A DNA stretch of 64,000 nt from a virus: positions 96,001 to 160,000 of the IMG/VR virus record IMGVR_UViG_3300042465_009257; one strand, written 5' to 3'. The notes beneath the pieces were generated by a model. The model did not search any database. It saw only the letters and a program-made list of their open reading frames with translations, and had not been told where the DNA came from. The translations under genes and the position numbers were made by a program. Of this stretch, positions 17,344 to 64,000 are shown piece by piece. Numbering within the stretch: position 1 is the first letter of the stretch; the number at the start of each line of letters is the position of its first letter.

Positions 17344-17396
17344 CATAAACCTACTCAGAGAATTCCAAGGGGGTCCATAGGGAAATTTATCCCCTA

Positions 17397-34620: not shown

Positions 34621-34637
34621 AAATTAATTAATACTGT

Positions 34638-34664: not shown

Positions 34665-34742
34665 TTCTATTTTAGTATTATTTTAATTAAGATCCGATTT
34701 TTGACCTAATCAAGATCTAAAGGCAAATTTCTTTGCTTTTTA

Positions 34743-35156: not shown

Positions 35157-35164
35157 ATTATTAT

Positions 35165-35362: not shown

Positions 35363-35375
35363 GTGGGAATTGTTG

Positions 35376-36608
35376 TTAGACAGCAGTAATCGTCAGCACC
35401 GTCCCACCGTTCGGCACCGTAACTCGGTATCGTGTGCCGTCTGGGGATTTCAGGATCACTCCTTTTGCGATGGTATCGACCTCAATGTCTCCGGAAGATA
35501 CTTGCAGTTTAGATGCCGGAGTGGTCGTGCCGATGCCAAGGTTGCCGTTGGCAGACATCTGCATATAAGTGGTTGTATAATTGACCCACGTAAACAATGG
35601 GCGTGTGCCAACCGCGCTTAAAGTCCCATTGTTTGGATCAGCGGCATTACTTGTAATAGCCGCAGAAAAAGCGACTATTGGCGCGGTGCCTGTGTCGTTG
35701 GCTGAGGTTGTTTGGCCCGACATATTAAGGCAGTAGCGAGCAGAAGAAGAAAACACAGCTCCAATAAACCCCGGAACAAAACTGCCATCCGAAACTGTGC
35801 CGTTTGCCATGTAAAAGGCATCATTCCCAGAATCAGAAACCGTGCATTTTAACAAGTTTTCTCTGACGCCAGTTTGCCCGGTCGCCTGAATGTGCAACGG
35901 AGACCCCGGAGCAGTTGTTCCAATCCCAACATTCCCACCCGCAGCAATCGACATCCGAACCACCCCACCCGTAACAAAATCAATCGGACGAGCCGTCCCC
36001 GTCCCACCATGCTCCGTCCCGATCCGAAGCGTATTGGCCGTGGTCAGCCAGTCAAATCCACCCCATTCATTGGCGGTTGTTCCCAAGAAGGTGTTATAGA
36101 CCCGGTGGACCTGTTTTGCTGTCCCGTTCCGCTGGGCTAGGATTCCGGCGGCGTCTCTAATTAAGATGGCATCAAGCGCAATGCTGTCTGGATTAAAGTA
36201 AGGGCCAAATCCAATATATCCGTTACCTCCAATGGCAATTGGAATGTGAGATGCTACACGGGTGTTTGTTGTGTTAAAATTTCCACTTCCAGCGGAAACC
36301 TGCCCGCCTTTGTCTACATTAAACTTACTCACCCCACCCACCTGAAGGTCCATCAAGTTTGACGTAGCGCCGCTTGCTGTATTTGTTACGTTAAGCTTCA
36401 ATGCGCTCGGCGTTCCGGTCGTGTTCCATGTTGTCGCCAGGTCGACCAGACTAGTCGCCTGCGTCCCGGTCAGCGATTGGCCGGTCAGGGATTGGGCCAA
36501 AAACGTCGGCGCGTCCGTTTGGCCTAGGCCGATGGCGGTGCGGATCGCGGCGTTATCGGCGGCACGGAGCATCGTGTCTACATTCGTGGATACAGTATGA
36601 TTAGGCAT
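35376..36608 (-). CDS. modular tail fibre protein
   Basis: AIRTAIGLG anchor, GNVGIGT repeats, GVILKSPDGTRYRVTV C-terminus. Confidence 0.78.
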   Translation of the reverse strand: MPNHTVSTNVDTMLRAADNAAIRTAIGLGQTDAPTFLAQSLTGQSLTGTQATSLVDLATTWNTTGTPSALKLNVTNTASGATSNLMDLQVGGVSKFNVDKGGQVSAGSGNFNTTNTRVASHIPIAIGGNGYIGFGPYFNPDSIALDAILIRDAAGILAQRNGTAKQVHRVYNTFLGTTANEWGGFDWLTTANTLRIGTEHGGTGTARPIDFVTGGVVRMSIAAGGNVGIGTTAPGSPLHIQATGQTGVRENLLKCTVSDSGNDAFYMANGTVSDGSFVPGFIGAVFSSSARYCLNMSGQTTSANDTGTAPIVAFSAAITSNAADPNNGTLSAVGTRPLFTWVNYTTTYMQMSANGNLGIGTTTPASKLQVSSGDIEVDTIAKGVILKSPDGTRYRVTVPNGGTVLTITAV

Positions 36609-37070: not shown

Positions 37071-37097
37071 TTACAGTCAAAGGTAAAATTAAGGAAA
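37071..37097 (-). promoter_or_regulatory. late promoter TTTCC-N17-TGTAA
   Basis: Perfect motif, 12 nt before the ATG at 37058. Confidence 0.75.
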
Positions 37098-42103: not shown

Positions 42104-42130
42104 TTACAGTTAAAAATAGAAAAAAGGAAA
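42104..42130 (-). promoter_or_regulatory. late promoter TTTCC-N17-TGTAA
   Basis: Perfect motif, 14 nt before the ATG at 42089. Confidence 0.75.
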
Positions 42131-43703: not shown

Positions 43704-44056
43704 TAAGATTTAAAGGTGCTGATGAATTTTTCGAAATTTTCGTTGATCTCGCGGGTTTCGGGCGAGACAGCGGAAAAAGATTGATCACTATATCGTTCAA
43801 CTGACCTGGCGGCGTCATCATAAGCCTTCATCATCCCTAAGGTTAACATGCGGCGTTCCCCAGATGGGCGCAAACCAATCTTGGAGGCATAATTGGATAG
43901 GTCACAATTGCTCATAGCCTTAATTTTGGCTTCATATTCGGCGCGAGTCTGACCCTCGAATAGATTCATTTTCTTTTTCGCCTGGGCGTAATCTAAGCTT
44001 AGAATTACTGGATTTCCAGTGCGCCCCGTGGCGACTTGATCGATTTTCTTTTTCAT
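43703..44056 (-). CDS. hypothetical protein (head completion region)
   Basis: 117 aa with its own late promoter. Confidence 0.65.
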   Translation of the reverse strand: MKKKIDQVATGRTGNPVILSLDYAQAKKKMNLFEGQTRAEYEAKIKAMSNCDLSNYASKIGLRPSGERRMLTLGMMKAYDDAARSVERYSDQSFSAVSPETREINENFEKFISTFKS

Positions 44057-44067
44057 CTTAATGGTGT

Positions 44068-44094
44068 TTACAGGAGTAATGAGAAAAAAGGAAA
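44068..44094 (-). promoter_or_regulatory. late promoter TTTCC-N17-TGTAA
   Basis: Perfect motif, 11 nt before the ATG at 44056. Confidence 0.75.
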
Positions 44095-44115
44095 ATTTAA
44101 TTTCCTAAAAATATA

Positions 44116-44150
44116 CAATAAAAAGGAGCGCCCTGTTTCCAGAGCGCCCC
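44116..44150 (-). terminator. intrinsic terminator after major capsid gene
   Basis: GGGGCGCTCTG-GAAA-CAGGGCGCTCC followed by TTTTTATTG. Confidence 0.88.
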
Positions 44151-44216
44151 AATCTTATTTTTATTCCCTACTCAAAGAATCGAGCGGGAGGTCATAGGAG
44201 GGGTGAACCCCCCTTA

Positions 44217-45341
44217 TTACCAGAGGAGACCGACGATAGCCTTGTCGAGACCAACCAACCAGCCTTCTTCGGTGAAACCGTAGTAGCCCATTTTCTCAGA
44301 GCGGGCAAGGTGTTGGTCATCAACCAGAAGCTGGAAGGTAGAACCGTTGGTATCAGCGTTGATCACGCGGGCGAAAGCACCGAGGGACTTGTCAATACCG
44401 ATTACGAGTTCATCAGTCGCCACGGTCCAAGCAGGAGCGCCGCCGCCAACCGCATTATACTTCTGGCGGAAGAGTTCGTTATAGACCTGACCAACGCCCA
44501 TTTCGTTGAGTTCGTGGAGGGTTTTACCGTAGATTTCGGTGGCACCACCGTTACGGTAGATTTCCATCCGCATTTCATCAGGAAGACCGAGAGCAGTGGA
44601 CTCAGCGCTATCAGGAACGCCAGTGGTGTTCATTGGGTTGTAGGTCATCTTGCGGATCTGTTCCATAGTCTCTGGGGAGATATAGAGATCAGTAAGACCG
44701 GAACCGGCAGAACGGGAGGTCCCGTTAGCCCAGGAACTGTTCAGGCGCTTGATTTTGGTCATCAAACGATTGACATCGTCAAGCTGGAACTGGCGGGCAG
44801 TGCTGTTGGTTTTCGCGGTTGAGGCGATAACGTGGGACTGATTTGCGGTACGAGCAGCGCCAAGGGCGTCAGCCAAAACCGTGAAGGCGTTGAACTGGCT
44901 CTTAACCATGATTTCGTCCATCAAGCGCATCAGGCCGCGCTCCACAACTTTCATACGAGCATCAGCGGCGTAGGACTTATTCCAAGCAATCGCGGAATCC
45001 ATACGGGAAGTCCGGAAGCGGAAGCTGTCAAAGCCAGAGATTTCGTTGTAAGCTAGACCACCGGGATAACCGTTGGACCAGACGCGGAAGGCACCTTCAC
45101 CGACTCCATAATAGAGATCGATTGGGATTTCAGGGACATCGCGGCCCGTATAAACTTCCACTTCCGTGAAAATATCGTTAGCGACATTGAGGGGTTCTAG
45201 AACACGGGAGAGGGACGAACTCATGATAGAAGCAAAAGCTTCTTGAGCGGCGTCGGCAACCGACTTGTTGGTGGAGCCGGAATCGCGGAGGAGTTGAAGA
45301 GTCTTCGCTTCCGCTTCCTTGGTTTTGAATTGAATAGCCAT
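44217..45341 (-). CDS. major capsid protein
   Basis: 374 aa after protease/scaffold and decoration genes; LTDLYISPETMEQIR and C-terminal GYYGFTEEG; strong codon bias; followed by a terminator. Confidence 0.85.
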   Translation of the reverse strand: MAIQFKTKEAEAKTLQLLRDSGSTNKSVADAAQEAFASIMSSSLSRVLEPLNVANDIFTEVEVYTGRDVPEIPIDLYYGVGEGAFRVWSNGYPGGLAYNEISGFDSFRFRTSRMDSAIAWNKSYAADARMKVVERGLMRLMDEIMVKSQFNAFTVLADALGAARTANQSHVIASTAKTNSTARQFQLDDVNRLMTKIKRLNSSWANGTSRSAGSGLTDLYISPETMEQIRKMTYNPMNTTGVPDSAESTALGLPDEMRMEIYRNGGATEIYGKTLHELNEMGVGQVYNELFRQKYNAVGGGAPAWTVATDELVIGIDKSLGAFARVINADTNGSTFQLLVDDQHLARSEKMGYYGFTEEGWLVGLDKAIVGLLW

Positions 45342-45367
45342 ATTAGTATTTTTTCAGGATTTGAAGA

Positions 45368-45970
45368 TTAGAGTTCAAGTTTGAAGAGGGCGTAACCATC
45401 AGCGTCAGCGCCTTCAAGGAACTTTCCAACGATTCCTGGGAAAAGGGTTTTATTATATACACAAGGAACGAGAGAGCCATTGTTAACATAAGCACCAGAG
45501 TTAAAAGCAGCGACACCAGTGATATTGTTAACAGAGAAGATTCCCTTGGTTACGATCTTGAGACCTTCGCCAGAGAGAACCACTTGGGCTTCATTGCGTT
45601 TGTCCCGACCTTGGTAAGCGTAGTTGACGCCATAGTCGTCATTTTCAACGCAGTCAACGAGGGTCATCCCGAGAACGACTTCACCAGAGTTCGCGGCGCG
45701 AACTTTATTCCCACCAATACCGAAACGGAGGGAGGTAGCGTAAACGGGAGCGTTGCCCCAATTGCCAAGAGCGCCAACGAAAGGAACAACAGGAGTTAAC
45801 CCAGTACCAGTGAGGTTGACATTAGGATTGCCGGATGACACCGTTACGGTGACAAAAGATCCCTTATAAAGAGGGATTGTGGTTGCGGAGTATAGTCCAT
45901 TGACTACATCATGTTCGGAGTACGAACGGAAAGCTTTCAAATCGATAGCTCTAGAGTGGGCGATTGCCAT
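45368..45970 (-). CDS. capsid decoration/cement protein
   Basis: 200 aa between scaffold and capsid genes; VLGMTL...VVLSGE..KIVTKG...VGKFL. Confidence 0.65.
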   Translation of the reverse strand: MAIAHSRAIDLKAFRSYSEHDVVNGLYSATTIPLYKGSFVTVTVSSGNPNVNLTGTGLTPVVPFVGALGNWGNAPVYATSLRFGIGGNKVRAANSGEVVLGMTLVDCVENDDYGVNYAYQGRDKRNEAQVVLSGEGLKIVTKGIFSVNNITGVAAFNSGAYVNNGSLVPCVYNKTLFPGIVGKFLEGADADGYALFKLEL

Positions 45971-46000
45971 TTTAGTTTAGTGTTAGTTGTTGATTATTAA

Positions 46001-46579: not shown

Positions 46580-48322
46580 AGGTTGGTTAATAGGAGTTAC
46601 AATAGGTTTATTAGATGAGGAAATTTTATTTTCACTTTTTTTAATATTTTTTCCAGCATAAGATTCCTCTACTTCTTTGGCACTTGCTAGCGTTGGATCA
46701 ATGCGTAAAAGTTCTGCTTGGGAAAACTCTTTTTCACCATCCCATTCGTAGTCATCCCCTTGAGCCTTTTTATAGGCATCTTTATCTGGATAGTCATCAC
46801 TACCTGGCTTTGCAGGTCTGTAATTCTTGCCCATTTTCTTTTTCTTATCACGAATATTTTCCCAAAGACCTTTCTTCGCGGCCTCAATCTTTTCCATATC
46901 TTCCTCGTCTTCCATTTCTGATGGCTCTTGGCTATAAATGACATAGTCATGAATGCTAGAAACATAATCTTCTGCTAAAGCCGCCATCCCTTGTAGAAAA
47001 GGCTCAGAAAGGTTTTCTTTTACAACTGGATCATTAGCATAAGTTAAAATAGTTTCAGCGTGCTTTTGGATGGAAGAAATAGACCCAAGAACCATTTCCG
47101 CAAGATCTTCTTTTAGATCCATCATTTCTTCTTCTACGGAAGCGACAATTTCACTGACAGGTTCGCCGCTCCACATTTTGCAACTCCAATAATTAGCTTT
47201 CCACTTTGGCCCAGGATTGACATCACAACCATGACGAGAACGGTAAGCTTTTCGACGATCAGGATCATCCCGCTTAATTTCCATATTTGGGTCGCCGAAC
47301 TTTACAGTAACGACATTCCCCTTATCATTTTTAACATAGACACCAAATTTCTTTTTTGATCCAGATGGAAGACGGAAAGGTTTATTTAAAACTTTTTCAG
47401 CAGCAGAAACTTCAATTTCAAGTTCAATTTTAACCATCTTTTTGCCCTCTTCGTCATCATCCTCCATTTCAGGAGATTCTTCTTCTGGTTCTTCCATCTC
47501 TGGTTCTTCCATTTCCATTTCTGGATCTTCCATTTCAGAATCGTCCATTTCCATATCAGGTTCTTTCATTTCCATATCATTTTTATAAGTCAAAATTCCT
47601 TTAACATCTGCCGCTGGTTGTAGAACCAAGCCCGCCCCAAGAATAGTAGGCTTTGAAATTACCCTGTATAGTGATTGACCATCTGGTGTAATTCCTTTCC
47701 CACCGTTGCACCTTAAATATTTAGATAAGCTTTCAACTTCTTTTTCGTCTTCAATAATTGTGGCATAAGCAAGATTCCTACTATTTAAAGCGATCTTATA
47801 GCTTTGGAATCCAACTTCGAAAGAGGTAGAAATGCTTTGATAATGTGGAGAATCTGGATTATCACACTCTTCTACGATTTGATCAATATCTCCAATAACT
47901 CTCCAAATAACGGCAGAAGCGGCAAGGTTAAAGGGAGTGGAAAGACCCATCACTTCTTTTTCAGTCATTAATTTGCTATCAGCATAGCTGGAAAAAGATG
48001 CTGAGGTAAGACATCCTACTACTTCTTCTCGATTGTGTTCAATATTAAATTGTTTATACTTAATATTCTTAGCCATTTCAATAATATCTGCTGTTAAAAC
48101 AGCATCGTCATTTAAATTAGCTTGATTGGCTACAGCTAAATTAAAACTGACATAAAGTAAATCTGGATTTTTATCAATTTCTTCTTTGCTTGGGAGAAGA
48201 CCGGATAAAGCGGAAATATCCCGCGCCGCTGAAGCAAAAGCGGAAAAACTCTCGAAGTCTTTGCGTTCCCGGTGTAAAATAGAAGCCTTCGAAGTAAAGG
48301 TCGTGCGATATTTAAAATCCAT
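46001..48322 (-). CDS. prohead protease-scaffold multidomain protein
   Basis: N-terminal NIEHNREEVVG...STSFEVGF...GAGLVLQPAAD protease motifs; acidic linkers; basic inserts; C-terminal coiled coil. Confidence 0.8.
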   Translation of the reverse strand: MDFKYRTTFTSKASILHRERKDFESFSAFASAARDISALSGLLPSKEEIDKNPDLLYVSFNLAVANQANLNDDAVLTADIIEMAKNIKYKQFNIEHNREEVVGCLTSASFSSYADSKLMTEKEVMGLSTPFNLAASAVIWRVIGDIDQIVEECDNPDSPHYQSISTSFEVGFQSYKIALNSRNLAYATIIEDEKEVESLSKYLRCNGGKGITPDGQSLYRVISKPTILGAGLVLQPAADVKGILTYKNDMEMKEPDMEMDDSEMEDPEMEMEEPEMEEPEEESPEMEDDDEEGKKMVKIELEIEVSAAEKVLNKPFRLPSGSKKKFGVYVKNDKGNVVTVKFGDPNMEIKRDDPDRRKAYRSRHGCDVNPGPKWKANYWSCKMWSGEPVSEIVASVEEEMMDLKEDLAEMVLGSISSIQKHAETILTYANDPVVKENLSEPFLQGMAALAEDYVSSIHDYVIYSQEPSEMEDEEDMEKIEAAKKGLWENIRDKKKKMGKNYRPAKPGSDDYPDKDAYKKAQGDDYEWDGEKEFSQAELLRIDPTLASAKEVEESYAGKNIKKSENKISSSNKPIVTPINQPMKITDLKSAIAAIEGVDSEAFASKAVCDFITSEIAKANELYVTEQTLKAESEASLAAALSDATEAKAKFEELSARLAEVEAQAAAQAAQDIFDARFNSLSEVYNVEDPKLRSLIAKQIRDLDEAAFESWKQEDGLVILAGKEKEKTPVNIEQATELMKEAKASVEDLPNAQDLADKPKFNILDLSDLIEIKA
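46597..46623 (-). promoter_or_regulatory. internal late promoter TTTCC-N17-TGTAA
   Basis: Perfect motif inside the coding sequence (encodes ISSSNKPIVT). Confidence 0.7.
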
Positions 48323-48331: not shown

Positions 48332-48358
48332 TTACAATCAAATGTAAAAAAAAGGAAA
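48332..48358 (-). promoter_or_regulatory. late promoter TTTCC-N17-TGTAA
   Basis: Perfect motif, 9 nt before the ATG at 48322. Confidence 0.75.
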
Positions 48359-52488: not shown

Positions 52489-52686
52489 CTAGTTACAATA
52501 GTTTTTCGATTTAGGGAAATTATATTCACTCGGGGTATATATTGACCACCCTTTATAAAATTTCCGGTATCCGTTTAACATCCGTTTAAAAGGAGATTGA
52601 ATTAAGAAGTGCGTTTTGCAAAACTCGTCAACATTTGAAACTAAAAATAAAATTCCCTTCGGACTGTGTAAAATTATAGATTTCAT
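52489..52686 (-). CDS. single SPxG..KGW repeat mini-protein
   Basis: LHSPKG...NVDEFCKTH...LNGYRKFYKGW matches the GIY-YIG C-terminal repeats. Confidence 0.65.
   Translation of the reverse strand: MKSIILHSPKGILFLVSNVDEFCKTHFLIQSPFKRMLNGYRKFYKGWSIYTPSEYNFPKSKNYCN
52493..52519 (-). promoter_or_regulatory. late promoter TTTCC-N17-TGTAA for lysis genes
   Basis: Perfect motif, embedded in the 3' end of ORF 52489..52686. Confidence 0.75.
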
Positions 52687-53847: not shown

Positions 53848-55758
53848 CTATTCACCCATACCATGGAAAAGAATCGTTGCTGCGGTCAAATCTAACTCGT
53901 GATCCTCCATTAATTCGCAAATTTTGTTATATTGAGTGCCAGAGTAATCGAAACTCAACGGGCTCTCAACGTAATTGGCGACAACTCCTCCAATCCACCT
54001 ATCAATCGGCTCAATAGACATGATTCGCTCCCACATGGAATCTACCAGTTTTTTATGATTCTGGCTTAGACGGGTAATAGAATTCTTCTCCTTGTAAATG
54101 GAGCCAACCATATTTGCCAATTCCTGCATTTTCGGCATATTCTCTTTGATTTTTGCCAAGCTTGCCTTTCCTTGTGGGGAAATAGTATTCTTGCTCTTTG
54201 GCGCAGTAGTTCCAGTTGGGCGACCAGCTTCGGCTTTGTTCCCGATTAGAGGTTCATAAATTTTATCTTTTTTCTGCGCTTTAAATACCTTTTGATTCTC
54301 CAAGGACTCTTCCTCAATGGGGAGGTGGTTGGTTTCGTAAGCATTGAATAGTTCTTTTGGCGTCAAAGCTCCGAGTTCATAGAGTCGGTTGTAGAGTTTC
54401 TTGCTTTCGTTCAGGGACTCCAAGGTGACCTCTTCAAATCGTGGCATTGGGGTTTCTTTAAAACCCATCTCCTCAGCAATTAACTTCATTTCAGGATAAA
54501 GGAAGTATTGGATGAATGATTCCCTTGCCTGTGATAAAAGCTCAAGATAAATCTTTGTTTTAGTTTGACCTGTGGCGAAATTCTCATCAGAACCCATGAT
54601 ATCATTCATTCCGTTCAGGATTTCTTTGTCCACGTTTACATACTTCTCATTTCCGAAAATCTCGTTCAATTTAGGAATAACAAATTGAGCTTGGGCACTA
54701 TAATCTGCGAAAAGAACTCTTCCTACGCTTTGGGCGGAAAAAAGATTAGCCATGCCTTCAAGCAATTGACGATTCTTCTTGCCTTCTCTTTTTTCATCCC
54801 CCGCCGTAATCAAAAGAATGCAGTAATCCGCCGAGGCCGCGACCTTCTCTTCCGAGGAGCGGAGAATTTGCTTAAAGTTAATCGATTTAAGAACTCCAAA
54901 ATAAGGAGGGACAGCCATTGGCTCATAAGACTGTTTAGCATTGAACGCCAAACGCAAACGGTCCATTTCCAATTTAATTACTGGTTGCTGACCAGTTGAA
55001 ATTGCTTTTTTAGATTGTTCGTCCAGCCCGCTAAAAATGTCCTTATCATGCTGGGTTGTTCCATTCTTAAGCATCTCAACTTCATAAGGATTAAGCACTT
55101 TACCATATTCCTGTCCAGAAAAAACAGAAGATCCAATGCCGCGAACATCGACAGGATTAATGATGATATACTTGAGAGGAATTTTGCGGGCCTTGGCGAT
55201 AGCTTCCTTTTCTCCCGCCACAGCGAGTTTTTTTACTTCAGATAATTTAATCTCTCCATCAAAACGATAAACTAAAACATTTCCTGAACGGAACCACTCC
55301 AGAAAGAATTGATTTGCAATATCCCAGATATTTACCTTTTGTGCCCACTCATCAAAAAATTTAATTATTTTTTTATCCTTACCCATGAAGTGAATCGGAG
55401 TATTGGATAGATAAGACTGCATCAAAATTGGATTGCGGAAAGAAGGAAAAGAATAAAATGCTTTTTGGCATAATTCAATACTTTCGTGTGAGCCGATTCC
55501 ACAGCGGTCATAAGAAAACGGATTGGCCGAATTTAAGATATGGAAATACTGGCTGGTTTCCGATTTATAAACTTGATTATCATAGCTTTCTGGGTTAACT
55601 CGGGAGATGCTGGCCTTTACCTCGTAGCCCTGCTTATTGAGAACCTCACTATTGATCATTGCCCCGGCGCATAACTCATCCTCCCCTTTCCCAAAAATTT
55701 CGAGGACTACGCCTCTTGTATCTTTTTCACGCGGCTTATTAGGGTTGAGTCTGGACAT
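53848..55758 (-). CDS. portal protein
   Basis: 636 aa directly after terL; QFFLEWFRSGNVLVY and YIIINP portal-like motifs. Confidence 0.8.
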   Translation of the reverse strand: MSRLNPNKPREKDTRGVVLEIFGKGEDELCAGAMINSEVLNKQGYEVKASISRVNPESYDNQVYKSETSQYFHILNSANPFSYDRCGIGSHESIELCQKAFYSFPSFRNPILMQSYLSNTPIHFMGKDKKIIKFFDEWAQKVNIWDIANQFFLEWFRSGNVLVYRFDGEIKLSEVKKLAVAGEKEAIAKARKIPLKYIIINPVDVRGIGSSVFSGQEYGKVLNPYEVEMLKNGTTQHDKDIFSGLDEQSKKAISTGQQPVIKLEMDRLRLAFNAKQSYEPMAVPPYFGVLKSINFKQILRSSEEKVAASADYCILLITAGDEKREGKKNRQLLEGMANLFSAQSVGRVLFADYSAQAQFVIPKLNEIFGNEKYVNVDKEILNGMNDIMGSDENFATGQTKTKIYLELLSQARESFIQYFLYPEMKLIAEEMGFKETPMPRFEEVTLESLNESKKLYNRLYELGALTPKELFNAYETNHLPIEEESLENQKVFKAQKKDKIYEPLIGNKAEAGRPTGTTAPKSKNTISPQGKASLAKIKENMPKMQELANMVGSIYKEKNSITRLSQNHKKLVDSMWERIMSIEPIDRWIGGVVANYVESPLSFDYSGTQYNKICELMEDHELDLTAATILFHGMGE

Positions 55759-55801
55759 AATTAGGTAAAATTAGGGATTAAAGTTGAATATCTGCTCTTA
55801 A

Positions 55802-55828
55802 TTACAGGATAAAGCGTATTAAAGGAAA
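55802..55828 (-). promoter_or_regulatory. late promoter TTTCC-N17-TGTAA
   Basis: Perfect motif upstream of the portal gene. Confidence 0.75.
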
Positions 55829-55830
55829 AT

Positions 55831-57690
55831 TTAATTGATGAAAAATCCCGCGAAGACTTCTTCATTATCATCATCGTCGCTCATCAATTTTTCATAACAT
55901 CGCCGAGCATAATTACCTAAAAGAAGGCTAGTGTAGGAATCCTTTCGCGCACGATGTTTATTTCCAGATTTCGCTTCAGCGGGAAGATCAAAACTAATAT
56001 TCCCTACTGAGTCTGTTTTTGTTTGAATCAAAGCAAGTTCCTTAGCTGTGTCGGCGACAACTTTGTCAACATGTTCGATGAACTCGCGGCGGCGCTCGTC
56101 ACCTGTAATTGAACTTGAAATCTGGTTAAATTCAAGATCTGGAACGTTCTTCAATAGATTAATGTTATAATCAACATCCGCATCACTATAATTGGAAATA
56201 GGAGAGGCAAACATAATCTTACTATGCTGAAGGTCGCCCTGCATCATTTCATTAGCATCACGAATCCAATTCTTTTTATTGAAAATCTGAGTAAATGCAA
56301 TATGGCTAGTTTGTTTATTGTATAAGTGCTTTGTTTCCCGATAAGTATCTTCATCAGTAAAATCTAAGCCAGACATGAAAATCTGTTTTTCATCTGGAAC
56401 CAAAGAATTATATTCTTCGATAAACCGAGGCCCGCCCGCGTGGTCAAGAATAATTAAAACGACATTAAATGAATCCATAAGATAGCGGAAATATTCCACT
56501 TTTCTTTTTACTTCACTTTTCGGCGAGGCATAGCCATGAACTAAGGTCGCCACGCCTGTTCCGTTTCCTGCTAGCTCTAGAACCGAAATTGCAAAGTTAT
56601 CCGCAGTTTCAGATCCAGCACTGGAGTTCGGGTCAACTGCGATAATATATTCCATTCCTCTTTTACCTTTAAACCTTACCTTTGGCTCTTCACCAACAGG
56701 CACAGTTGATCTAAGAATGTGTTCTACATTATAAAATCCGCCGCTGTCATCAGTGAAAATAGCATTATACTCTCTGTCAAATTGTTGAGAAGAAAGAGTT
56801 TTTCTGGCGTTCTCAATACTGTCTAAATCTAGTAAATTAGCTGCGGCGCATTTGTAGCCGAGTCTAAATAAGGAGTGACTTACATGAGCCGCCGTTGGAT
56901 CATGAATCGTATTTAGATATTGGAGATAAGTATTCTTATAGAGTGGCTGAAATTTATAAGTAGCAGAAGAAAGACCGATAATTTTATTGTTCTGGTAAAC
57001 AGTCCTCTCCCACTCCTGCATTTCGCCGCGATCAATCAGGATTTGCTCTGCTTCCGCCACTTTTCTTTGCTCTGCTCCATTGCCGCGCTTTACAGCTAAA
57101 AATGGAATAATAATATCTGATACAATCTTTTCCGGAACAGAAAGATATTCGTCAATAATTACTAAGTTGGCGCGATAACCACGATTCTTTTCTGTTAAAG
57201 GGGTCGCCGTAATAGTAGAGGTTCCAATTTTCATTTCCCACCGGTCAGTCCCGCGAGAAGCTGGTTTTGGTGAACATTGTTTTAAGAATCCGCCCTGTTC
57301 AGATTCGATGAACTTTTCCACCTGGTCAAAGATCATCTTTGCTTGACGGAAAGACGCTGAGCAAATAATTACTTTTGTCCCTGGGTTGAAAAGTGCGTAG
57401 AGAACAATAAAAATACTGACTGTGTAACTCTTGCTGAAACCTCTTCCTGCTACAATTAAATTAAAATCCTTTTTAAACCACGTCCTAATAATAATATCTT
57501 GGATGGGGTGAATTTTTCCTAACTTAGGCCCTATCAAAAATTCGGCTGCTAAAAAAGGATTACTAGCTAAAAACTTTGTAAACCATATGGCTGCATCCTC
57601 CGTACTTATATCACCTTTTACGTCCCGCCAATCGCTATTTATTTTTTCAATATTAATTTCTGGGGCATGCTCCCCTTCGTGCCAACTCAT
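55831..57690 (-). CDS. terL: terminase large subunit
   Basis: Q motif HPIQ, Walker A AGRGFSKS, Walker B VIIDE, motif III SSA, nuclease IAVDP and RKDSYTS. Confidence 0.93.
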   Translation of the reverse strand: MSWHEGEHAPEINIEKINSDWRDVKGDISTEDAAIWFTKFLASNPFLAAEFLIGPKLGKIHPIQDIIIRTWFKKDFNLIVAGRGFSKSYTVSIFIVLYALFNPGTKVIICSASFRQAKMIFDQVEKFIESEQGGFLKQCSPKPASRGTDRWEMKIGTSTITATPLTEKNRGYRANLVIIDEYLSVPEKIVSDIIIPFLAVKRGNGAEQRKVAEAEQILIDRGEMQEWERTVYQNNKIIGLSSATYKFQPLYKNTYLQYLNTIHDPTAAHVSHSLFRLGYKCAAANLLDLDSIENARKTLSSQQFDREYNAIFTDDSGGFYNVEHILRSTVPVGEEPKVRFKGKRGMEYIIAVDPNSSAGSETADNFAISVLELAGNGTGVATLVHGYASPKSEVKRKVEYFRYLMDSFNVVLIILDHAGGPRFIEEYNSLVPDEKQIFMSGLDFTDEDTYRETKHLYNKQTSHIAFTQIFNKKNWIRDANEMMQGDLQHSKIMFASPISNYSDADVDYNINLLKNVPDLEFNQISSSITGDERRREFIEHVDKVVADTAKELALIQTKTDSVGNISFDLPAEAKSGNKHRARKDSYTSLLLGNYARRCYEKLMSDDDDNEEVFAGFFIN

Positions 57691-57720
57691 AGTATATTTA
57701 TTTCTGTAAGGTATATAAAA

Positions 57721-58689
57721 TTAAAAAGTTTCATCAATAATCGGGTATAATTGCATATCCTCTTCCGTAGGTATACTCCAATTGTAATTTTTCGTGAGGC
57801 TGCTCTTCCTCCTCCCTTCGAAAAAAGTGCGTAAGATTCCACAAGGAACGCTGTATTTACTAGCAAACGTTTTAATCACTACGAATCTAGAAATAATCCC
57901 AAGATCTTTATTGAGTAGTAACTTTTTATTAAAAAGTCTATCAAGATTTTTTTGGTGTTCGGGCAATGGATTTTCAAGATGATAGCCTTTAGTATTGGAA
58001 TATTTACCTTGGCAAACTAAGACTACAGAGCTTTCAGGTGCGCCTATTTTTCTTGCGAATTCGGCCATATTATCGAATATGATTAATTCCTTTTCGGGGG
58101 AGAGCATGCGATACTCTCTTTTAACTACGTGAAACGAGGGGTTGACTGATTTCCAACCTTTGCAGGATTTCTCCGCTCCGGTTACAACATTAGATATACC
58201 TTGTCTGGGTAGTCCGCGCTCTTCGCAAAATTGACTTAAATTTTTCCCCTTAATTAAATTTCCTTCGGGGTCAAGAATTTCGAACTCTTTTGCTTTAGCG
58301 TGATTTTCTCTGTATACTCCTGGGTATTCTTCAATAGACTGGTCATGCCTAAGATTGTAACCATCCTGAAAATACATAGCTTTTAAATTTACTATATATT
58401 CTGACTCTAGACTCAATAATGGTTCTCCATAACTTTTAAGCTCCAAAATTTCAAAAGTAAAGCAGTCCTCTCCATGCTTGTTAAAAGAATGCTGCAAATA
58501 AGGACAACAGTGTATATTTTGCCTTAAGTCGCTCCTGTGTTTTGACCATCTCTTGTAAAACCCCTGTCTATCAGCAGCCTTTCCAATATAAAATCTTCCC
58601 GTTTTGCGATTTGTTATCTTGTAAATTCCATTTGTTCTTGGCCAAAATCGTTTGAAGTTGGAATTCATATGAAAAATCACGCCTATCAT
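57721..58689 (-). CDS. GIY-YIG endonuclease with 3 tandem repeats
   Basis: GIYKITNRKTGRFYIGK...KRWSKH...LESEYI...GYNL. Confidence 0.9.
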   Translation of the reverse strand: MIGVIFHMNSNFKRFWPRTNGIYKITNRKTGRFYIGKAADRQGFYKRWSKHRSDLRQNIHCCPYLQHSFNKHGEDCFTFEILELKSYGEPLLSLESEYIVNLKAMYFQDGYNLRHDQSIEEYPGVYRENHAKAKEFEILDPEGNLIKGKNLSQFCEERGLPRQGISNVVTGAEKSCKGWKSVNPSFHVVKREYRMLSPEKELIIFDNMAEFARKIGAPESSVVLVCQGKYSNTKGYHLENPLPEHQKNLDRLFNKKLLLNKDLGIISRFVVIKTFASKYSVPCGILRTFFEGRRKSSLTKNYNWSIPTEEDMQLYPIIDETF

Positions 58690-59609
58690 TATAGAAGCCC
58701 CCTATCTTTTAAGTACTCAAGATCCGTCGTCTTAGCTGCTTCCCCCATACGAAAAATCTTATCAATAATCTCAACGCTACGGTAACGATTCGGCGCGAAA
58801 ACAAATTGAATATTATTGTAATCGGTCATAAATTTGCGTAACTTGTTGAATAAGAACGCGCCTCCTATCTTTTGAGAAAAAGAATTCTTTGGAGAATATT
58901 CAAAAGCATCAATAAAAGAGCATTCTGTAACTACAACTAAGTAAATTCCAAGCTCCGCTGCCCGCTCAACCTCCTTAGCAAATCTTTCGATTCCTTTTGT
59001 AAGGGTTCCCGCAAGGTCGTAAATCGATTTCCTTTCAACAAAAACATTACAGAAGAATTCTTCACTGGGGCAATAATCACCAACAATCAGTTTTTTTACT
59101 TCCGACGCCTGGCCGAAGTTCAATGGTGTCTGCTCTCGCGTATCGACATAAACATTCATTGGGCCACTTTTAAACTCTGGACTTTCTGTCTGTAGTTTCA
59201 TTTCCAGCCCCACTGTCCTCAAATTTGTTTTCAAATTTTCTACTCCCCCAAACATCGTAATATAGTCACTCAAGCATGGGACAAATAAACTCTTCATTTC
59301 AACATGGGACGGAATCAGATTAGTCTGTTTTTCTTCTGCTCTTTCTTTTAAAATATTAATAGAATAATCTTGAACTTCTTTGCCGCCTGGAGCAATCCAC
59401 TTAAGAAAATTGTACTTACTGTTGAAATTCGTAGAAAAATATTGTTTAATATCCTTAAACTCAATTAATTCTCCATCGAATAGGTCGCGCCGATTGAAAA
59501 ACAAAGGGTAGTAATCCCTTGGAATTAGACCGTGGTCCTTTTTAATATGGCGGTGAAGTGTCGAAAAGCTTCCTGTTTCCGCGCCGCATACTTGACATTT
59601 AAAATCCAT
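58689..59609 (-). CDS. C2H2 zinc finger + ERCC4 (XPF/Mus81-type) nuclease
   Basis: CQVC...HIKKDH; VDTREQ...GDY...VERKS..DL. Confidence 0.88.
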   Translation of the reverse strand: MDFKCQVCGAETGSFSTLHRHIKKDHGLIPRDYYPLFFNRRDLFDGELIEFKDIKQYFSTNFNSKYNFLKWIAPGGKEVQDYSINILKERAEEKQTNLIPSHVEMKSLFVPCLSDYITMFGGVENLKTNLRTVGLEMKLQTESPEFKSGPMNVYVDTREQTPLNFGQASEVKKLIVGDYCPSEEFFCNVFVERKSIYDLAGTLTKGIERFAKEVERAAELGIYLVVVTECSFIDAFEYSPKNSFSQKIGGAFLFNKLRKFMTDYNNIQFVFAPNRYRSVEIIDKIFRMGEAAKTTDLEYLKDRGLL

Positions 59610-59611
59610 GA

Positions 59612-60763
59612 TTAATCATTTATCTGGTGAGAGAACCCTAATATTTCGTTGATTCCCATCCCGTGGGCTTCTCCGATTTCTTGGGGAGTGTCTTTTATTT
59701 TTTGAATCTCAGTCATGAGAACCTTTTCCGCATAAACTTTCGATTTAAGAATAAATTTTTCACGATTACCTTGGTCGCAGACAGCATTAATATAACGCGC
59801 CAAAGACTCATGGTATTTCGATTCAGTATCTTTTCTTTTTGAATAAGATTTATTTAATGTATCTTGCAGAGCCTTGATGTTCTTCTGACATTTATCTAAT
59901 TCGTTGGTTTTTGCTGAAAGGTTTTCCGCGAATACCATATTCGTCTTTTCGTCCCCTTCAAGCGAAGATTTTACTCTGCCGTCTAAAAGATTCATCATTT
60001 CCCGAATCTGCATTTCTCGAATATATTCGCCGCAGAGCATCATACAAGCGTTGATGTCATCTGGAATCATATCGGGTTTATTGTAGGTCGCCCGAATGAA
60101 TTCAATTTCGAATAATTCTCTTTCCTGAATCTTTTTAAAACTATTAATAGTAAGACAGAATTTCTTTAAACCCAAATTGGCTTTAAGAACTCTTACGCAC
60201 TTGCGTTCAAAAGAAGAAAGTCTGTGTTTCGCCATGTCCGCGCCGCCATCTGCCCGATTGATCTTTCTGATCACTGTTTCGTCTGTAAGCGGCGGGCGGT
60301 ACTCTCCGTCCTGAATATCGTCAACTTCATGTAGAACCTCAGCAGGACCCTTGTATTCGCGTCCTAAGGCTACCTGTAGAGCTTTTACGCTATTGGCGCG
60401 GCTATTCGCTTCCCCGCTTTCAATTGTGCCCTCAAAAAGAATATTAACAATCTCACCTGGCTTGCGGGAAGCGGTAAGACTAATAATTTTTTCAATTTCT
60501 TTATCGGTAAAATTATAATATTCGCGGCCTTGTTTAAGTCGAAGATAAAAAGCCTTTGCTTTCGTAAACTTCGTGTCACGCTTGTCAATCATCATGTCCC
60601 CAAAAGCCTTGCGGACAAAGTCAAGCATATCCTTCGTTTCCTCAGATTCTAAATTCTCCCGAATATACTTTTGGGCATGATAAGGAATTTTCTGAGTAGC
60701 TTCGATGATAATAGCGTCAGTTTTATTGACGGCATCAAAGGATAGTAGTGATGCAGGATTCAT
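59612..60763 (-). CDS. hypothetical coiled-coil protein (terminase small subunit candidate)
   Basis: Helical and upstream of terL. Function inferred from position only. Confidence 0.4.
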   Translation of the reverse strand: MNPASLLSFDAVNKTDAIIIEATQKIPYHAQKYIRENLESEETKDMLDFVRKAFGDMMIDKRDTKFTKAKAFYLRLKQGREYYNFTDKEIEKIISLTASRKPGEIVNILFEGTIESGEANSRANSVKALQVALGREYKGPAEVLHEVDDIQDGEYRPPLTDETVIRKINRADGGADMAKHRLSSFERKCVRVLKANLGLKKFCLTINSFKKIQERELFEIEFIRATYNKPDMIPDDINACMMLCGEYIREMQIREMMNLLDGRVKSSLEGDEKTNMVFAENLSAKTNELDKCQKNIKALQDTLNKSYSKRKDTESKYHESLARYINAVCDQGNREKFILKSKVYAEKVLMTEIQKIKDTPQEIGEAHGMGINEILGFSHQIND

Positions 60764-61473
60764 TGTGCAAAAATATCGATATCTTTCATTATAACTTTCG
60801 CCCGATTAATTAAAACTTTTTTAATGTTTGTAATTTGGCGATAACCGGGCAATTTACCCTCTTCCGAAGTTTTAAATTTCATAGCCTCAGAAATAAATTC
60901 ATCAGAGCGGTGTTCAATGTACAACCAACGGTAAAGCTTTTGCATTTTCGGGGTTAATCCCGTCATTACTAGTTGGTGTAAACGGTCTGATGCGGCGGCG
61001 TAATCAGGAGACTCTTTGGATTCTAAAGTAATTCTACTTTCCCCTTCTGGGTCTGAATCATAAGCCTTATCAGTTGATTCCGCCAAGAGCATATTGTAGC
61101 CAACCCCTTTTGAGACTTCCCATTTTGCGAATTTAGAGCATTGAGAGTTTTTTGCGCCACTGGGAGTAAAGGAACATTGTCCGCCACCGATATTAAATTC
61201 ACATGTTTGGCATGGAGGGGCAAGTCGCCCGTAGAATTTCTTTTTTAAATTAATAATTTGGCGGTTAATTAGACTTGCCGCCCAAGGAGAAAAAGGAAGG
61301 TTTTGATTCCACTGGTCGAATTTAGTAAAGATATGAAGTCTAATGATCTGGGATACATCATCATATCCAACTTGGCTAATAGAATCTAACGTCCAGAACG
61401 AACGCTTAGATGATAAAATTGAGTCAATCTCCTCTTGACAATCTTCGTAAGTTTTAACCTTTATCATCGGCAT
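60760..61473 (-). CDS. phage-encoded ECF-like RNA polymerase sigma factor with Cys4 insert
   Basis: Region-2-like YDDVSQIIRLHIFTKFDQW...FSPWAASLINRQIINLKKK; region-4-like LTPKMQKLYRWLYIEHRSDEFISEAM; CQTC..C..C between them. Confidence 0.75.
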   Translation of the reverse strand: MPMIKVKTYEDCQEEIDSILSSKRSFWTLDSISQVGYDDVSQIIRLHIFTKFDQWNQNLPFSPWAASLINRQIINLKKKFYGRLAPPCQTCEFNIGGGQCSFTPSGAKNSQCSKFAKWEVSKGVGYNMLLAESTDKAYDSDPEGESRITLESKESPDYAAASDRLHQLVMTGLTPKMQKLYRWLYIEHRSDEFISEAMKFKTSEEGKLPGYRQITNIKKVLINRAKVIMKDIDIFAQ

Positions 61474-61816
61474 CCATCTTGGTCGTTGTGGTCATCCGCT
61501 TTGTAAATTCTTTGAAATCTTTTTGAGAAACTTTTTTACGATCAACCCAACCCGTTTCTCCTTGGCCGATTACTGAACCGAATTTAACCCCTTGTTTGGC
61601 GCTTGCAGTAATAGCAACTTGATCAAGATCAGGGATTTCTGGTTCATATTCCTCTTCGAAGTAGCGGCGCGGGGGCGTCGGACGCGAAACTGGTGCAGGG
61701 GCGGGAGAAGAAGCGATAGCCCCACCATTCATTTTAGTGCCACATTGAGTGCAAAAATTTGGACGCTGGGAATGATATTCCATTGAATGCCCACAATGGG
61801 CGCAAAAACTTTTCAT
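61454..61816 (-). CDS. zinc-ribbon protein
   Basis: FCAHCG...PNFCTQCG followed by a Pro-rich linker. Confidence 0.75.
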   Translation of the reverse strand: MKSFCAHCGHSMEYHSQRPNFCTQCGTKMNGGAIASSPAPAPVSRPTPPRRYFEEEYEPEIPDLDQVAITASAKQGVKFGSVIGQGETGWVDRKKVSQKDFKEFTKRMTTTTKMDADDKG

Positions 61817-61830
61817 GATATACTACTTAA

Positions 61831-61859
61831 ATTAAATGAACTTTTTCAAAAAAAGTCAA
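61831..61859 (-). promoter_or_regulatory. host sigma70-type promoter TTGACT-N17-TTTAAT
   Basis: 5/6 match at both boxes with a 17-nt spacer; 14 nt before the ATG at 61816. Confidence 0.65.
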
Positions 61860-61871
61860 CTAAAAATAAAT

Positions 61872-63518
61872 TTAGGTTTTAATAATTGTCACGCCCAAGA
61901 GTCTTGCGTCGGCAGTAAATGTATCCGATGCGTTGGTTGCATTGCGATAAACTTGAAGTTTGATCGGGGCATATGCGGCTGGAACTGGCGGGGTAATAGA
62001 GGAGGTGAAGCTACTTATATGAACTCCGCTAGATGTGACTTTAGTATCAATAATGTTTTGAGGTGGACCGTAAATAACATCTAAAGCGCCAAAATCTGCC
62101 AGAGCTATACCTCTTGCACCCCACATGATAGCCCCCGCACCTACTGTCCCACAAGTCCAAATAAATTGGCATTTAAAGCTATCCCATCCCAATGGTAATA
62201 AAAAGTCACCTTGAGCGTACTCAATAGCAGACTGATCAAAGTCAAGAACTTTATAATCGATTTTATTCGTAGTAGTCGTAATTAAACCAGTTGCCGCTCC
62301 GCTTACAGTCGTAGGATACAATTGCCCGACAGGAAGATGGATTATGGAAGAGGTATCACAATTATTGAGATATAAATTATTCCCTTTCACGGAAACAAAT
62401 GTTCTACCACCCAGCCCAGGACCTCTCAAAGTTCCACCAGCTAGAGTCAGATAATCATTATCGGTAGACGACATCGTACAAGCTGCACTAGTTTGGTGGA
62501 TAATTTGACATGAGAACCCATCTACTAGTGGACCGTATTCAAAATTGATAAAATGATCTGTAGCTTTTGTATTATATAGAATTTTACCGTCGTACTCTGC
62601 CCCAATCTCAATAAAATCATTTATTCCATAGTCCAATGTTCTATAAATATCGTCTGAATGAGCATAACGATTAACTCCAGTAATTCCTGGCGCTAGTTGG
62701 ATATTAACACCACTAGAAGTGCGGACATTTAAACTTGAATTTCCAGAGGAGAAAAGAATTGTCCCGCTGGGGTGAAAAGTTGTAGGATTGACATTTGCAT
62801 GACGAATAACAAATGATCCTTTTCCCCCAATATCAGTGCGCGTACCAAATTCTTGGAAATAACCCACTTCTACTGAATCTCTTTGAGCTTTTAAGACACT
62901 AAATAAATTGTATGCTCCGTCCCACATGCCCCAGCCAAATCCCATGAAATTTGAAGGAATAGTAGCAGAGTTGACTTGTGGATTTACATAATCAAAACTT
63001 GAATAAGTATTGGCAGCGGTAAAATCGTAGATTCCCGGAAGAGTAGCGCTGGCATAACCACCTAAATTCGATTTAAATAGCGCCTTAGATCCTACGAAAT
63101 TAGAAACTTCTGTATATTTCAGATTTGCGTTTGTTCGTTTTACGATTTGGGGTGGACCGTAACCTGCATTAAAATCAGTTTGATTAACGCCAAATCCGAA
63201 GTCAGTATTAGAAGTATAATCACCGTTCCAATAAACTTGTAATGCTCCAGATCCAGATGTTCCGCCTATAGTTCCGTTGCCAAATCGCATCCGGCCTTGA
63301 TTAAAATAGAAATCATTATTATTTCCTGAGATCAGATTTAAAGTCGGAACTTCGCCTGAAAATGTGGAAAATAAAACTTTTGGTATCCCCGTCGAACTCG
63401 CCAAGTAAAGGTCAATTAAACCGGGAGAACTCCCACTTCTAAAAAAAGCGAAACCTGGGGGATCTGCAACCAATGATGGGTAGACCGCTACTAAACCGAA
63501 TCCTGATGGGAATGACAT
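61872..63518 (-). CDS. fibre/spike-like virion protein
   Basis: G/S/T-rich; C-terminal LDFDQ..EYAQ...YRNATNASDTFTADARLLGV domain of phage fibre-tip type. Confidence 0.55.
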   Translation of the reverse strand: MSFPSGFGLVAVYPSLVADPPGFAFFRSGSSPGLIDLYLASSTGIPKVLFSTFSGEVPTLNLISGNNNDFYFNQGRMRFGNGTIGGTSGSGALQVYWNGDYTSNTDFGFGVNQTDFNAGYGPPQIVKRTNANLKYTEVSNFVGSKALFKSNLGGYASATLPGIYDFTAANTYSSFDYVNPQVNSATIPSNFMGFGWGMWDGAYNLFSVLKAQRDSVEVGYFQEFGTRTDIGGKGSFVIRHANVNPTTFHPSGTILFSSGNSSLNVRTSSGVNIQLAPGITGVNRYAHSDDIYRTLDYGINDFIEIGAEYDGKILYNTKATDHFINFEYGPLVDGFSCQIIHQTSAACTMSSTDNDYLTLAGGTLRGPGLGGRTFVSVKGNNLYLNNCDTSSIIHLPVGQLYPTTVSGAATGLITTTTNKIDYKVLDFDQSAIEYAQGDFLLPLGWDSFKCQFIWTCGTVGAGAIMWGARGIALADFGALDVIYGPPQNIIDTKVTSSGVHISSFTSSITPPVPAAYAPIKLQVYRNATNASDTFTADARLLGVTIIKT

Positions 63519-63521
63519 ATA

Positions 63522-64000
63522 TTAAGAAATAATTTTAAACAGATTTCCTCTCCTAGAGGGTTTATCCAATTTACTTGACCTTGAAACGGAGTTCCAAGTA
63601 TCTCCTGTGTAAAGCGTGGCATCCTTAATAGAACGAAAAGATTTAATAATGTTACTATTTTCATCTATAAGATTAACAATTGTGTAGGAGACACGCAAGT
63701 TTTTTTTAAACCCTTGAATTTTATCGCCTCTGTATTCAAGGAAAAACATAAAACCATTTGTAGATTTTTGCCTTTTCCGATTAACCTGTAAACTATTTTC
63801 TCTATTAGCTATTTCACTAATAGTCCTTTGATTTACACCTAAATCTCTTGAGCAGTCAGCCATGCAGTCATATTTTTTGTAAAACTCTCCATCAATAGTA
63901 TAAGCGAAAACTTTAACCGCTTTTGGATTTAATGCACCTTTCCGATTCTTAGATGTGTTATTTTTTCTCATATTGGCCCGAGCTTCATCCGTATATATAT
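63522..64000 (-). CDS. C-terminal part of a homing endonuclease-like protein (NUMOD3-like + 2 NUMOD1-like)
   Basis: The frame stays open to the window edge (YTDEARANMRK...GALNP); VFAYTIDGEFYKKY...DLGV and IIKSFRSIKDA. Confidence 0.7.
   Translation of the reverse strand, partial: IYTDEARANMRKNNTSKNRKGALNPKAVKVFAYTIDGEFYKKYDCMADCSRDLGVNQRTISEIANRENSLQVNRKRQKSTNGFMFFLEYRGDKIQGFKKNLRVSYTIVNLIDENSNIIKSFRSIKDATLYTGDTWNSVSRSSKLDKPSRRGNLFKIIS

Follow-up and report, generated by a model that had tools for sequence, protein, structure and literature searches.

Sigma factor cascades of phages are textbook knowledge, and the characterised examples originate from few cultured phages. For phage phiEco32, the sigma factor gp36 was reported to read the promoter tAATGTAtA, with transcription starting 6–8 bp downstream (PMC8948821, PMC12276001), and to be without homology to sigma region 4 (PMC8948821). 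Salmonella phage 7-11 encodes gp47, an extracytoplasmic function (ECF)-like sigma factor with region 4, for which the bipartite late promoter GTAAtg-16-aCTA was shown in vitro (PMC8948821). Among the ECF sigma factors, the group ECF238 (CorE2, SigZ) carries functional cysteines in a stretch of approximately 20 amino acids (aa) that extends the C-terminus and, for part of its members, in the linker (PMC7826278). In this study, a 237-aa sigma-like protein with four cysteines between regions 2 and 4 (referred to as the Cys4 sigma) was analysed, which is encoded, together with a 120-aa zinc-ribbon (Zn-ribbon) protein, on the minus strand of the virus record IMGVR_UViG_3300042465_009257 (173,358 bp, CheckV 100% complete). 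The window, that is, the whole stretch of 64,000 nucleotides (nt) considered here, comprises bases 96001–160000 of this record, and almost all of its genes are located on the minus strand. According to the explanation favoured in this study, to which we assign a probability of approximately 65%, the Cys4 sigma is primed by the host sigma70 and redirects the host core polymerase to late promoters featuring a TGTAA core.

The initial annotation of the locus had described the protein as sigma-like, and both sigma regions, 2 and 4, were recovered by family profiles as well as by structure prediction. On its own, the sequence matched the Pfam model Sigma70_r2 at residues 36–78 (E = 0.024, 14.9 bits) and the NCBIfam model TIGR02937 at residues 35–199 (E = 3.5e-6, 26.8 bits), and a word-indexed search with it returned 11 relatives. 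A profile search among 1.84 billion representatives recovered 495 clusters at E ≤ 1e-3 and 306 at E ≤ 1e-10 (clusters being counted at 50% identity), nearly all of them with a length of 220–245 aa. Within an alignment of 90 relatives (alignment A2), each of which is 23–63% identical to the window protein, Sigma70_r2 was matched by 74 sequences (best E = 4.5e-9), TIGR02937 by 87 at E ≤ 0.01 (best E = 8.1e-14), the PHROG sigma factor phrog_1740 by 28, and Sigma70_r4_2 by five (best E = 1.2e-7). Compared to the PDB, the A2 family profile aligned with region 2 of SigR (E = 4.4e-4), SigW, and CnrH. Furthermore, one family member at JGI had already been annotated automatically as a sigma24-family protein.

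An AlphaFold2 model calculated with A2 as the alignment reached a mean predicted local distance difference test score (pLDDT) of 92, and the top 50 Foldseek matches obtained for both models were all sigma factors. In the domain-wise comparison with VIA, region 2 was superposed on the sigmaE region 2 structures 2map and 8b3z (Z between 7.3 and 7.4), and region 4 on 2h27, representing sigmaE region 4 on −35 DNA (Z 7.6), and on 6onu, representing SigA region 4 (Z 7.5, root-mean-square deviation 1.7). These Z values are middling by themselves; the assignment as a sigma factor is secure because of the uniform Foldseek ranking in combination with the sequence profiles. Judged by profiles and models, the phage encodes with this 237-aa protein a genuine and highly divergent member of the sigma-70 family. 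As deduced from the same sources, region 2 is followed by the Cys4 module, which takes the place of region 3; then come a flexible linker and region 4, whose helix-turn-helix has an enlarged turn. Region 2 is the best conserved part throughout the family.

Two features set off this architecture, both of which had been pointed out in the initial annotation and were found again in the family. The first is the Cys4 module, whose cysteines C88-Q-T-C91, C100, and C112 follow the pattern CxxC-x8-C-x11-C. All 90 relatives keep C100 and C112; for C88 and C91, conservation amounts to at least 90%. The module occupies the position that is taken by region 3 in group-3 sigma factors. Based on the cysteine pattern, its ligand is most likely zinc, and an iron–sulfur cluster may be the alternative. 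The second feature is the KTSEEGKLPG insert, which separates the helices 191–198 and 211–231 of the model. The canonical turn of region 4.2 consists of three to four residues; in the Cys4 sigma it is enlarged by approximately five to seven residues. The loop is a hallmark of the family, with the consensus [FY]K[TS]xE..GR.PGY[KR]QI. The alignments with SigW and TIGR02937 end at the edge of this loop, and the hhalign alignment with phiEco32 gp36 features a five-residue gap at the same place.

The two genes of the pair, which overlap by 20 nt, as had been stated before, follow a spacer of 55 nt. The spacer harbours the sigma70-type promoter that had been proposed to head the operon, its TTTAAT element being located 14 nt before the ATG of the Zn-ribbon gene. 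Within the genome, the strict pattern TTGAC[AT]-N16-19-TAnAAT yielded 13 intergenic matches, 12 of which are located at genome positions 17–93 kb, and the early promoters fit the TTGACA/TATAAT type. On the coding strand of the late arm, TTGACT-17-TTTAAT represents the sole intergenic strict sigma70-like match, and it stands directly before the Zn-ribbon gene. The promoter is kept as TTGAAT-17-TATAAT in the related locus L009 (sigma 63% identical) and as TTGACG-17-TACAAT in the related locus L012 (sigma 56% identical), with the flanking spacer having diverged in both of them. Since a generic promoter scan of the window positions 55000–64000 returned 20 sites compared to 23.1 expected, that is, no excess over chance, the case for this promoter rests on the stricter pattern and on conservation, and on these grounds the earlier description stands.

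A second promoter class was recognised by inspecting every intergenic spacer of the window: the motif TTTCC-N17-TGTAA was found before many genes. Exact matches in the window are distributed as 11 on the minus strand versus one on the plus strand, and allowing for one mismatch, 29 matches compared to 8.4 expected were counted, a number reached by none of 100 shuffles. Genome-wide, 22 exact matches were detected versus none for a control pattern read backwards. For TTTC[CAT]-N17-TGTAA, 24 of 30 genome-wide matches are intergenic, the intergenic share of the genome being 8.6% (P ~ 9e-21). A de novo count in upstream regions also ranked TTTC-N18-TGTA as the top dyad, and the consensus extends to aaAATTTCc...TGTAAt. 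Sites in the late arm are located between 7 and 44 nt before start codons; at the late promoters of the window, the end of TGTAA is just 7–29 nt away from the start codon, often without a Shine-Dalgarno sequence. As a side observation, GC-rich hairpins with T-runs merge into the TTTCC element at window positions 17269–17396 and 44057–44216 on the minus strand, forming terminator-promoter cassettes; the same arrangement of hairpin and T-run occurs before GTGTAA in relatives.

The late motif had been described as appearing first just after terL. This holds for the window; elsewhere in the genome, however, copies are also located upstream of the sigma operon (genome 161152–161178 and approximately 160340–160385) and before single plus-strand cassettes in the early arm. 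In L009, the late motif directly precedes the gene in front of the Zn-ribbon gene. Terminator prediction returned nothing for the 55-nt spacer that separates the sigma operon from the late genes upstream. With late motifs upstream of the operon and no predicted terminator in between, read-through would give positive feedback; the circuit therefore looks like a feedback loop primed by the host sigma70, and the strict two-step cascade that had been proposed was abandoned for this reason.

TGTAAT is only one base away from TATAAT, and the Zn-ribbon protein with its acidic linker could modify the polymerase or its sigma factor. Both points would suit an explanation in which the late promoters are read by the host polymerase with the host sigma factor re-targeted by phage factors in the style of T4 MotA/AsiA, the Cys4 protein being an accessory DNA binder. 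However, TGTAAT and TATAAT differ at what would be the −11 position, where the A is flipped out and critical in sigma70 structures. Moreover, region 2 is complete in the Cys4 protein, with W64 and N75 conserved; an accessory DNA binder could dispense with such a domain. The fold of the Cys4 protein, too, matches whole sigma factors. Hence, we consider re-targeting of the host sigma factor to be quite improbable.

To what extent the promoter follows the sigma factor becomes apparent from the comparison of relatives. Close relatives keep (T/C)TTCC-N17-TGTAA, whereas distant relatives (35–41% identity) are devoid of a conserved −35 element and feature GTGTAA. In three large records of the distant clade, one of them being complete (148 kb), the Cys4 sigma represents the only Sigma70_r2 match. 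The complete 148-kb relative shows GTGTAA with the strongest enrichment of any hexamer within 60 nt upstream of genes (17 occurrences versus 1.57 expected), TTGACA ranking behind it, and 19 GTGTAA sites are located at most 60 nt from a start codon. Pooled over 80 related loci, 86 GTGTAA occurrences versus 3.5 expected were counted upstream of genes on the sigma strand, whereby relatedness inflates the count of independent events. The spacers ahead of the unit carrying the gene pair in the distant clade contain a TATAAT-like or TTGACT-like sequence plus GTGTAA or GTGTAT, a layout that would fit the logic of priming plus feedback. As judged from these sequence comparisons, the TGTAA core of the −10 element follows the sigma family, TTTCC as the −35 half occurs only in the clade of the window, and the distant clades appear to use a single-element promoter (GTGTAA). 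AAAGT-N17-TGTAA was also considered as a clade-specific bipartite motif and was rejected as a general −35 element, with one to two copies per distant genome.

A second sigma-like gene, encoding a protein of 166 aa, is located in the early arm of the same genome and strongly matches Sigma70_r2 (E = 1e-12). If the late motif were read by this protein, the Cys4 sigma would control a subset of genes or a middle class. Homologues of the 166-aa protein are few (five clusters, 165–168 aa, 53–88% identical) and confined to the clade possessing the TTTCC −35 element; a search of IMG/VR with it found nothing. Its assignment as the late reader is nevertheless unlikely. It is devoid of a detectable region 4, whereas the late motif has two parts at a rigid distance of 17 bp. 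Furthermore, its region 2 resembles that of primary sigma factors (best PDB matches: SigA and SigA1 as the top three chains, cyanobacterial SigA; RpoS). In sigma70, aromatic residues read TATAAT-like −10 elements, and the 166-aa protein keeps the aromatic residues that, inferring from the established sigma70 work, would serve such elements. TGTAA-type promoters also persist in relatives without the 166-aa protein, and a de novo count of upstream regions provided no additional, third promoter class as a possible target of the Cys4 sigma. The Cys4 sigma is favoured as the reader since it possesses the two domains required to read a two-part promoter of fixed spacing, and the strongest evidence comes from the comparison of relatives. 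Accordingly, of the previous proposal that it reads TTTCC/TGTAA, its position as the best candidate is retained, with TGTAA kept across the family, and the proposal is weakened by the rival gene.

The Zn-ribbon protein, the putative partner of the Cys4 sigma, consists of the N-terminal ribbon, a Pro/Ala-rich and then acidic linker, and a conserved tail. Approximately 37 of the 40 IMG/VR loci with enough upstream sequence encode an open reading frame (ORF) of 113–130 aa directly before the sigma gene, usually overlapping it. These ORFs start with MNK.FC..CG, and the second CxxC follows 13 residues after the first. In their alignment with the window protein (alignment A3), C5, C8, G9, P19, F21, C22, C25, G26, and R93 are invariant. 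The two genes remain paired even where sigma identity falls to 35%, an observation in favour of a joint function of their products. Profile searches with the Zn-ribbon protein provided only generic, sub-threshold matches to zinc fingers and zinc ribbons, and a predicted complex of the sigma factor (A2) and the Zn-ribbon protein (A3) obtained a score of 0.00, with the fold of the partner being uncertain, so that this score has no weight for binding in either direction. Among longer family members, the search for a fusion of the two proteins revealed N-terminal extensions without CxxC pairs. The HxxxCxxC motif of anti-sigma factors is not present in the Zn-ribbon protein, and its gene is located upstream of the sigma gene. 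The Zn-ribbon protein would more likely be a dedicated partner acting as a co-factor of polymerase or sigma than a classical anti-sigma factor; the conserved gene pairing is what suggests either of the roles, co-activator or anti-sigma, that the initial annotation had offered.

The favoured explanation can be set out as follows, starting from what was observed: the sigma fold and family membership, the conserved cysteines, the conserved gene pair, both promoter classes with their distribution, and the family-wide TGTAA. Host RNA polymerase with its primary sigma factor would initiate at the sigma70-type promoter before the Zn-ribbon gene, and the Zn-ribbon protein and the phage sigma would be made together by translational coupling. 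The phage sigma would then bind the host core polymerase and direct it to late promoters with the −10 core TGTAA, to which, in the clade of the window, the TTTCC −35 element exactly 17 bp upstream would be added. Since no Rpb1 or Rpb2 domains were detected in the genome, the phage is expected to rely on the host polymerase and to change the specificity factor of this enzyme. Late promoters upstream of the sigma operon would amplify the production of the sigma factor by read-through, representing the positive feedback, and the Zn-ribbon protein would act as the dedicated partner on polymerase or sigma. Core binding, the assignment of the sigma factor to its promoter, metal binding, and the role of the partner are the parts of this scheme that we infer.

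Several points weigh against this explanation. It relies on sequence comparisons and models. Taken alone, the 237-aa protein scores below the curated cut-offs (14.9 versus 24 bits for Pfam region 2 and 26.8 versus 42.9 bits for TIGR02937), kinship among the loci inflates the pooled counts, and the 166-aa gene resides in the same genome and is restricted to the very clade with the TTTCC element. In the distant clade, GTGTAA is positioned at a nearly fixed distance of 8–17 nt, mostly 9–13 nt, before start codons, a spacing that could also fit a translation signal; late mRNAs may be nearly leaderless, or the element may act in translation as well. Finally, clades possessing a conserved −35 element and clades devoid of it have a similar recognition helix in region 4 (GY[KR]QI), so that co-variation at the level of residues was not seen. 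The co-variation of sigma factor and promoter expected previously was therefore confirmed in part only, namely for the TGTAA core, which occurs wherever the family occurs; the TTTCC half is limited to one clade, and the recognition helix is uninformative.

A more far-reaching version, which we regard as tentative and rather doubtful, considers the Cys4 sigma and the Zn-ribbon protein as a two-part initiation factor. In this version, the module would replace region 3 and either contact the DNA just upstream of TGTAA or sense metal or redox state, the partner would dock on polymerase or sigma to license late transcription, and the late mRNAs would be nearly leaderless. If this were true, uncultured aquatic phages would widely possess an orthogonal sigma/promoter system that is small, portable, and perhaps switchable.

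Downstream of the pair, the operon contains nucleases and terL, as described in the initial annotation, the nucleases being of the ERCC4 type and the GIY-YIG type (Table 1). The ERCC4-type nuclease features a C2H2 finger at its N-terminus. The GIY-YIG gene is absent at the corresponding place in L009, for which reason it is read as probably representing a homing-endonuclease insertion; a different nuclease-like gene is located there in L012. Close relatives have homologues of the 383-aa protein at this site (387 and 385 aa), where an ORF of similar size is found in distant loci; the protein is a further, as yet unassigned member of the sigma-terL module. The gene order Zn-ribbon, sigma, ~400-aa protein, ERCC4, terL is kept across the sigma family, and small terminases often possess helix-turn-helix domains. 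The place of the Cys4 protein two genes before terL might accordingly be explained by a small-terminase-like function in the recognition of DNA for packaging. Region 2, which serves promoter melting and core binding, is the best conserved part, however, and the architecture is sigma-like from end to end, making a packaging component highly improbable.

Regarding individual late motifs, the copy at the very start of the 124-aa ORF with a GTG start suggests that the true start of this ORF is probably located further downstream, and the copy within the 773-aa ORF may represent an internal promoter. Beyond these features, the local GC content amounts to 0.49–0.52 at window positions 34001–36000 and 44001–46000 compared to ~0.35–0.45 elsewhere in the window. 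A 27-nt stretch occurs in three near-identical copies, ~130–260 nt apart, at window positions 37423–37845 on the plus strand, which is the non-coding strand here; the copies reflect a repeated coding segment within a 686-aa gene (37140–39200).

Table 1. Features of the sigma locus and predicted late promoters; positions refer to the window unless marked as genome positions.
Feature	Position	Strand	Basis or context
NUMOD1-domain gene	63522-63971	-	two genes upstream of the Zn-ribbon gene, before a 548-aa gene
Sigma70-type promoter, TTGACT (61859-61854), 17 nt, TTTAAT (61836-61831)	61831-61859	-	read directly; conserved in L009 and L012
Zn-ribbon protein, 120 aa, N-terminal CxxC-x13-CxxC	61454-61816	-	overlaps the sigma start by 20 nt
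Sigma-70-family protein, ECF-like, 237 aa, internal Cys4 module	60760-61473	-	TIGR02937, Pfam, PDB profile, Foldseek
Sigma region 2 domain, residues ~10-85	61219-61446	-	Pfam region 2, VIA; D39, Q42, W64, N75 conserved
Cys4 module, residues 86-130, short strands then helix 113-129	61084-61218	-	conservation; pLDDT 95-98
Low-confidence acidic linker, residues 131-157	61003-61083	-	pLDDT 52-63
Sigma region 4 domain, residues 158-232	60778-61002	-	VIA; Sigma70_r4_2 in relatives
Loop KTSEEGKLPG, residues 201-210, by which the helix-turn-helix turn is enlarged	60844-60873	-	model and family alignment
383-aa protein, no family match	59612-60763	-	between sigma and ERCC4 nuclease
Operon remainder: 383-aa protein, ERCC4 nuclease, GIY-YIG nuclease, terL	55831-60763	-	without sizeable gaps, same direction as sigma
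GIY-YIG nuclease	57721-58689	-	between ERCC4 and terL
Late promoter before the gene after terL (probable portal)	55802-55828	-	TGTAA-type motif at the homologous position in relatives
Late motif, exact	52493-52519	-	very start of 124-aa GTG-start ORF
Late motif, exact	48332-48358	-	window scan
Late motif, exact	46597-46623	-	627 nt into 773-aa ORF
Late motif, exact, right after terminator-like hairpin	44068-44094	-	window scan
Late motif, exact	42104-42130	-	window scan
Late motif, exact	37071-37097	-	window scan
Late motif, TTTCA variant	34638-34664	-	window scan
Late motif, exact	30433-30459	-	window scan
Late motif, exact	18500-18526	-	window scan
Late motif, exact, right after terminator-like hairpin	17277-17303	-	window scan
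Late motif, TTTCT variant	15432-15458	-	window scan
Late motif, exact	13462-13488	-	window scan
Late motif variant, spacer 16, TGTAT	5233-5258	-	window scan
Second sigma-like gene, 166 aa, outside the window	genome 54694-55194 (= L094:1276-1776)	-	Sigma70_r2, E = 1e-12

To evaluate the distribution of the family, sequence collections of cultured and uncultured origin were searched. In IMG/VR, 283 loci encoding a member of the Cys4 sigma family were found, and tblastn searches with the window sigma and a distant relative against 50,697 cultured-phage records gave no match. Among 185,579 prokaryote species genomes, three contigs matched (L109–L111, 75–139 kb), all of them originating from metagenome-assembled genomes with discordant taxonomy (Gammaproteobacteria, Saccharibacteria, and Flavobacteriales), and they probably represent mis-binned phage contigs. 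Redirecting the host polymerase by a phage sigma factor, as the Cys4 sigma most likely does, is a known strategy, and the Cys4 structural variant has so far been encountered in uncultured phages only. The metal-type module between regions 2 and 4, the enlarged helix-turn-helix turn, and the obligate Zn-ribbon partner gene are features without a description for phage sigma factors in the papers cited here. Short and clearly delimited promoters are predicted, and the clades differ in having a bipartite or a single-element form with the −10 core being kept. The family therefore offers a testable case of promoter architecture evolving with its sigma factor, as well as a source of candidate orthogonal sigma/promoter pairs. 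If the assignment of sigma factor to promoter is true, late genes could be called from the sequence in many uncultured phage genomes.

Compared to the ECF sigma factors, the Cys4 sigma shares the combination of region 2 and region 4, and TIGR02937 as well as several ECF models match the family, those for SigZ matching 13–14 of the 90 relatives weakly. The ECF plan, in which regions 2 and 4 are joined by a short unstructured linker, was not found in the 237-aa protein, where a 45-residue Cys4 module (pLDDT 95–98) precedes the linker. The C-terminal cysteines of ECF238 are likewise not present, the protein ending five to six residues after the last helix of region 4. Unlike ECF238, the Cys4 sigma features a folded 45-residue module between its domains and an enlarged helix-turn-helix turn. 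The earlier statement on ECF groups with zinc-binding inserts between regions 2 and 4 holds in a loose sense only, since the cysteines of ECF238 are located mainly at the C-terminus and just in part of the members in the linker (PMC7826278). A cognate anti-sigma factor of the ECF type is co-transcribed, often binds zinc by an HxxxCxxC motif, and is usually encoded downstream; the partner of the Cys4 sigma is encoded upstream and is devoid of HxxxCxxC.

The late sigma factor gp55 of T4 with its small partner gp33, acting on late promoters that are dominated by the −10 element, resembles the pair proposed here. However, gp55 possesses a region-2-like part only, with gp33 replacing region 4, whereas the Cys4 sigma has both regions. 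Similarity to gp33 was limited to one weak Pfam match in one of the 90 relatives.

Like the Cys4 sigma in the explanation favoured here, gp36 of phiEco32 is a divergent phage sigma factor bringing the host core polymerase to middle or late promoters. The TGTA core is common to the gp36 promoter and the late promoters tentatively assigned here to the Cys4 sigma, and the single-element form of the former resembles GTGTAA of the distant clade. A small phage helper, gp79, works with gp36, but it is not a Zn-ribbon protein encoded beside the sigma gene; gp36 is without cysteines, whereas the Cys4 family has four conserved ones. The hhalign comparison of gp36 with the 90-sequence profile provided no significant similarity (probability 6%, 51 columns, a weak region 4 alignment). 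In phage 7-11, as proposed here, the early genes are read by the host sigma70, but the promoter sequences differ from TTTCC/TGTAA, and a zinc or cysteine feature of gp47 is not mentioned in PMC8948821. Within the phiEco32-like group, distantly related sigma factors such as gp36 and gp47 make use of bipartite or of single-element promoters, which is the same division as that proposed for the clades of the Cys4 sigma.

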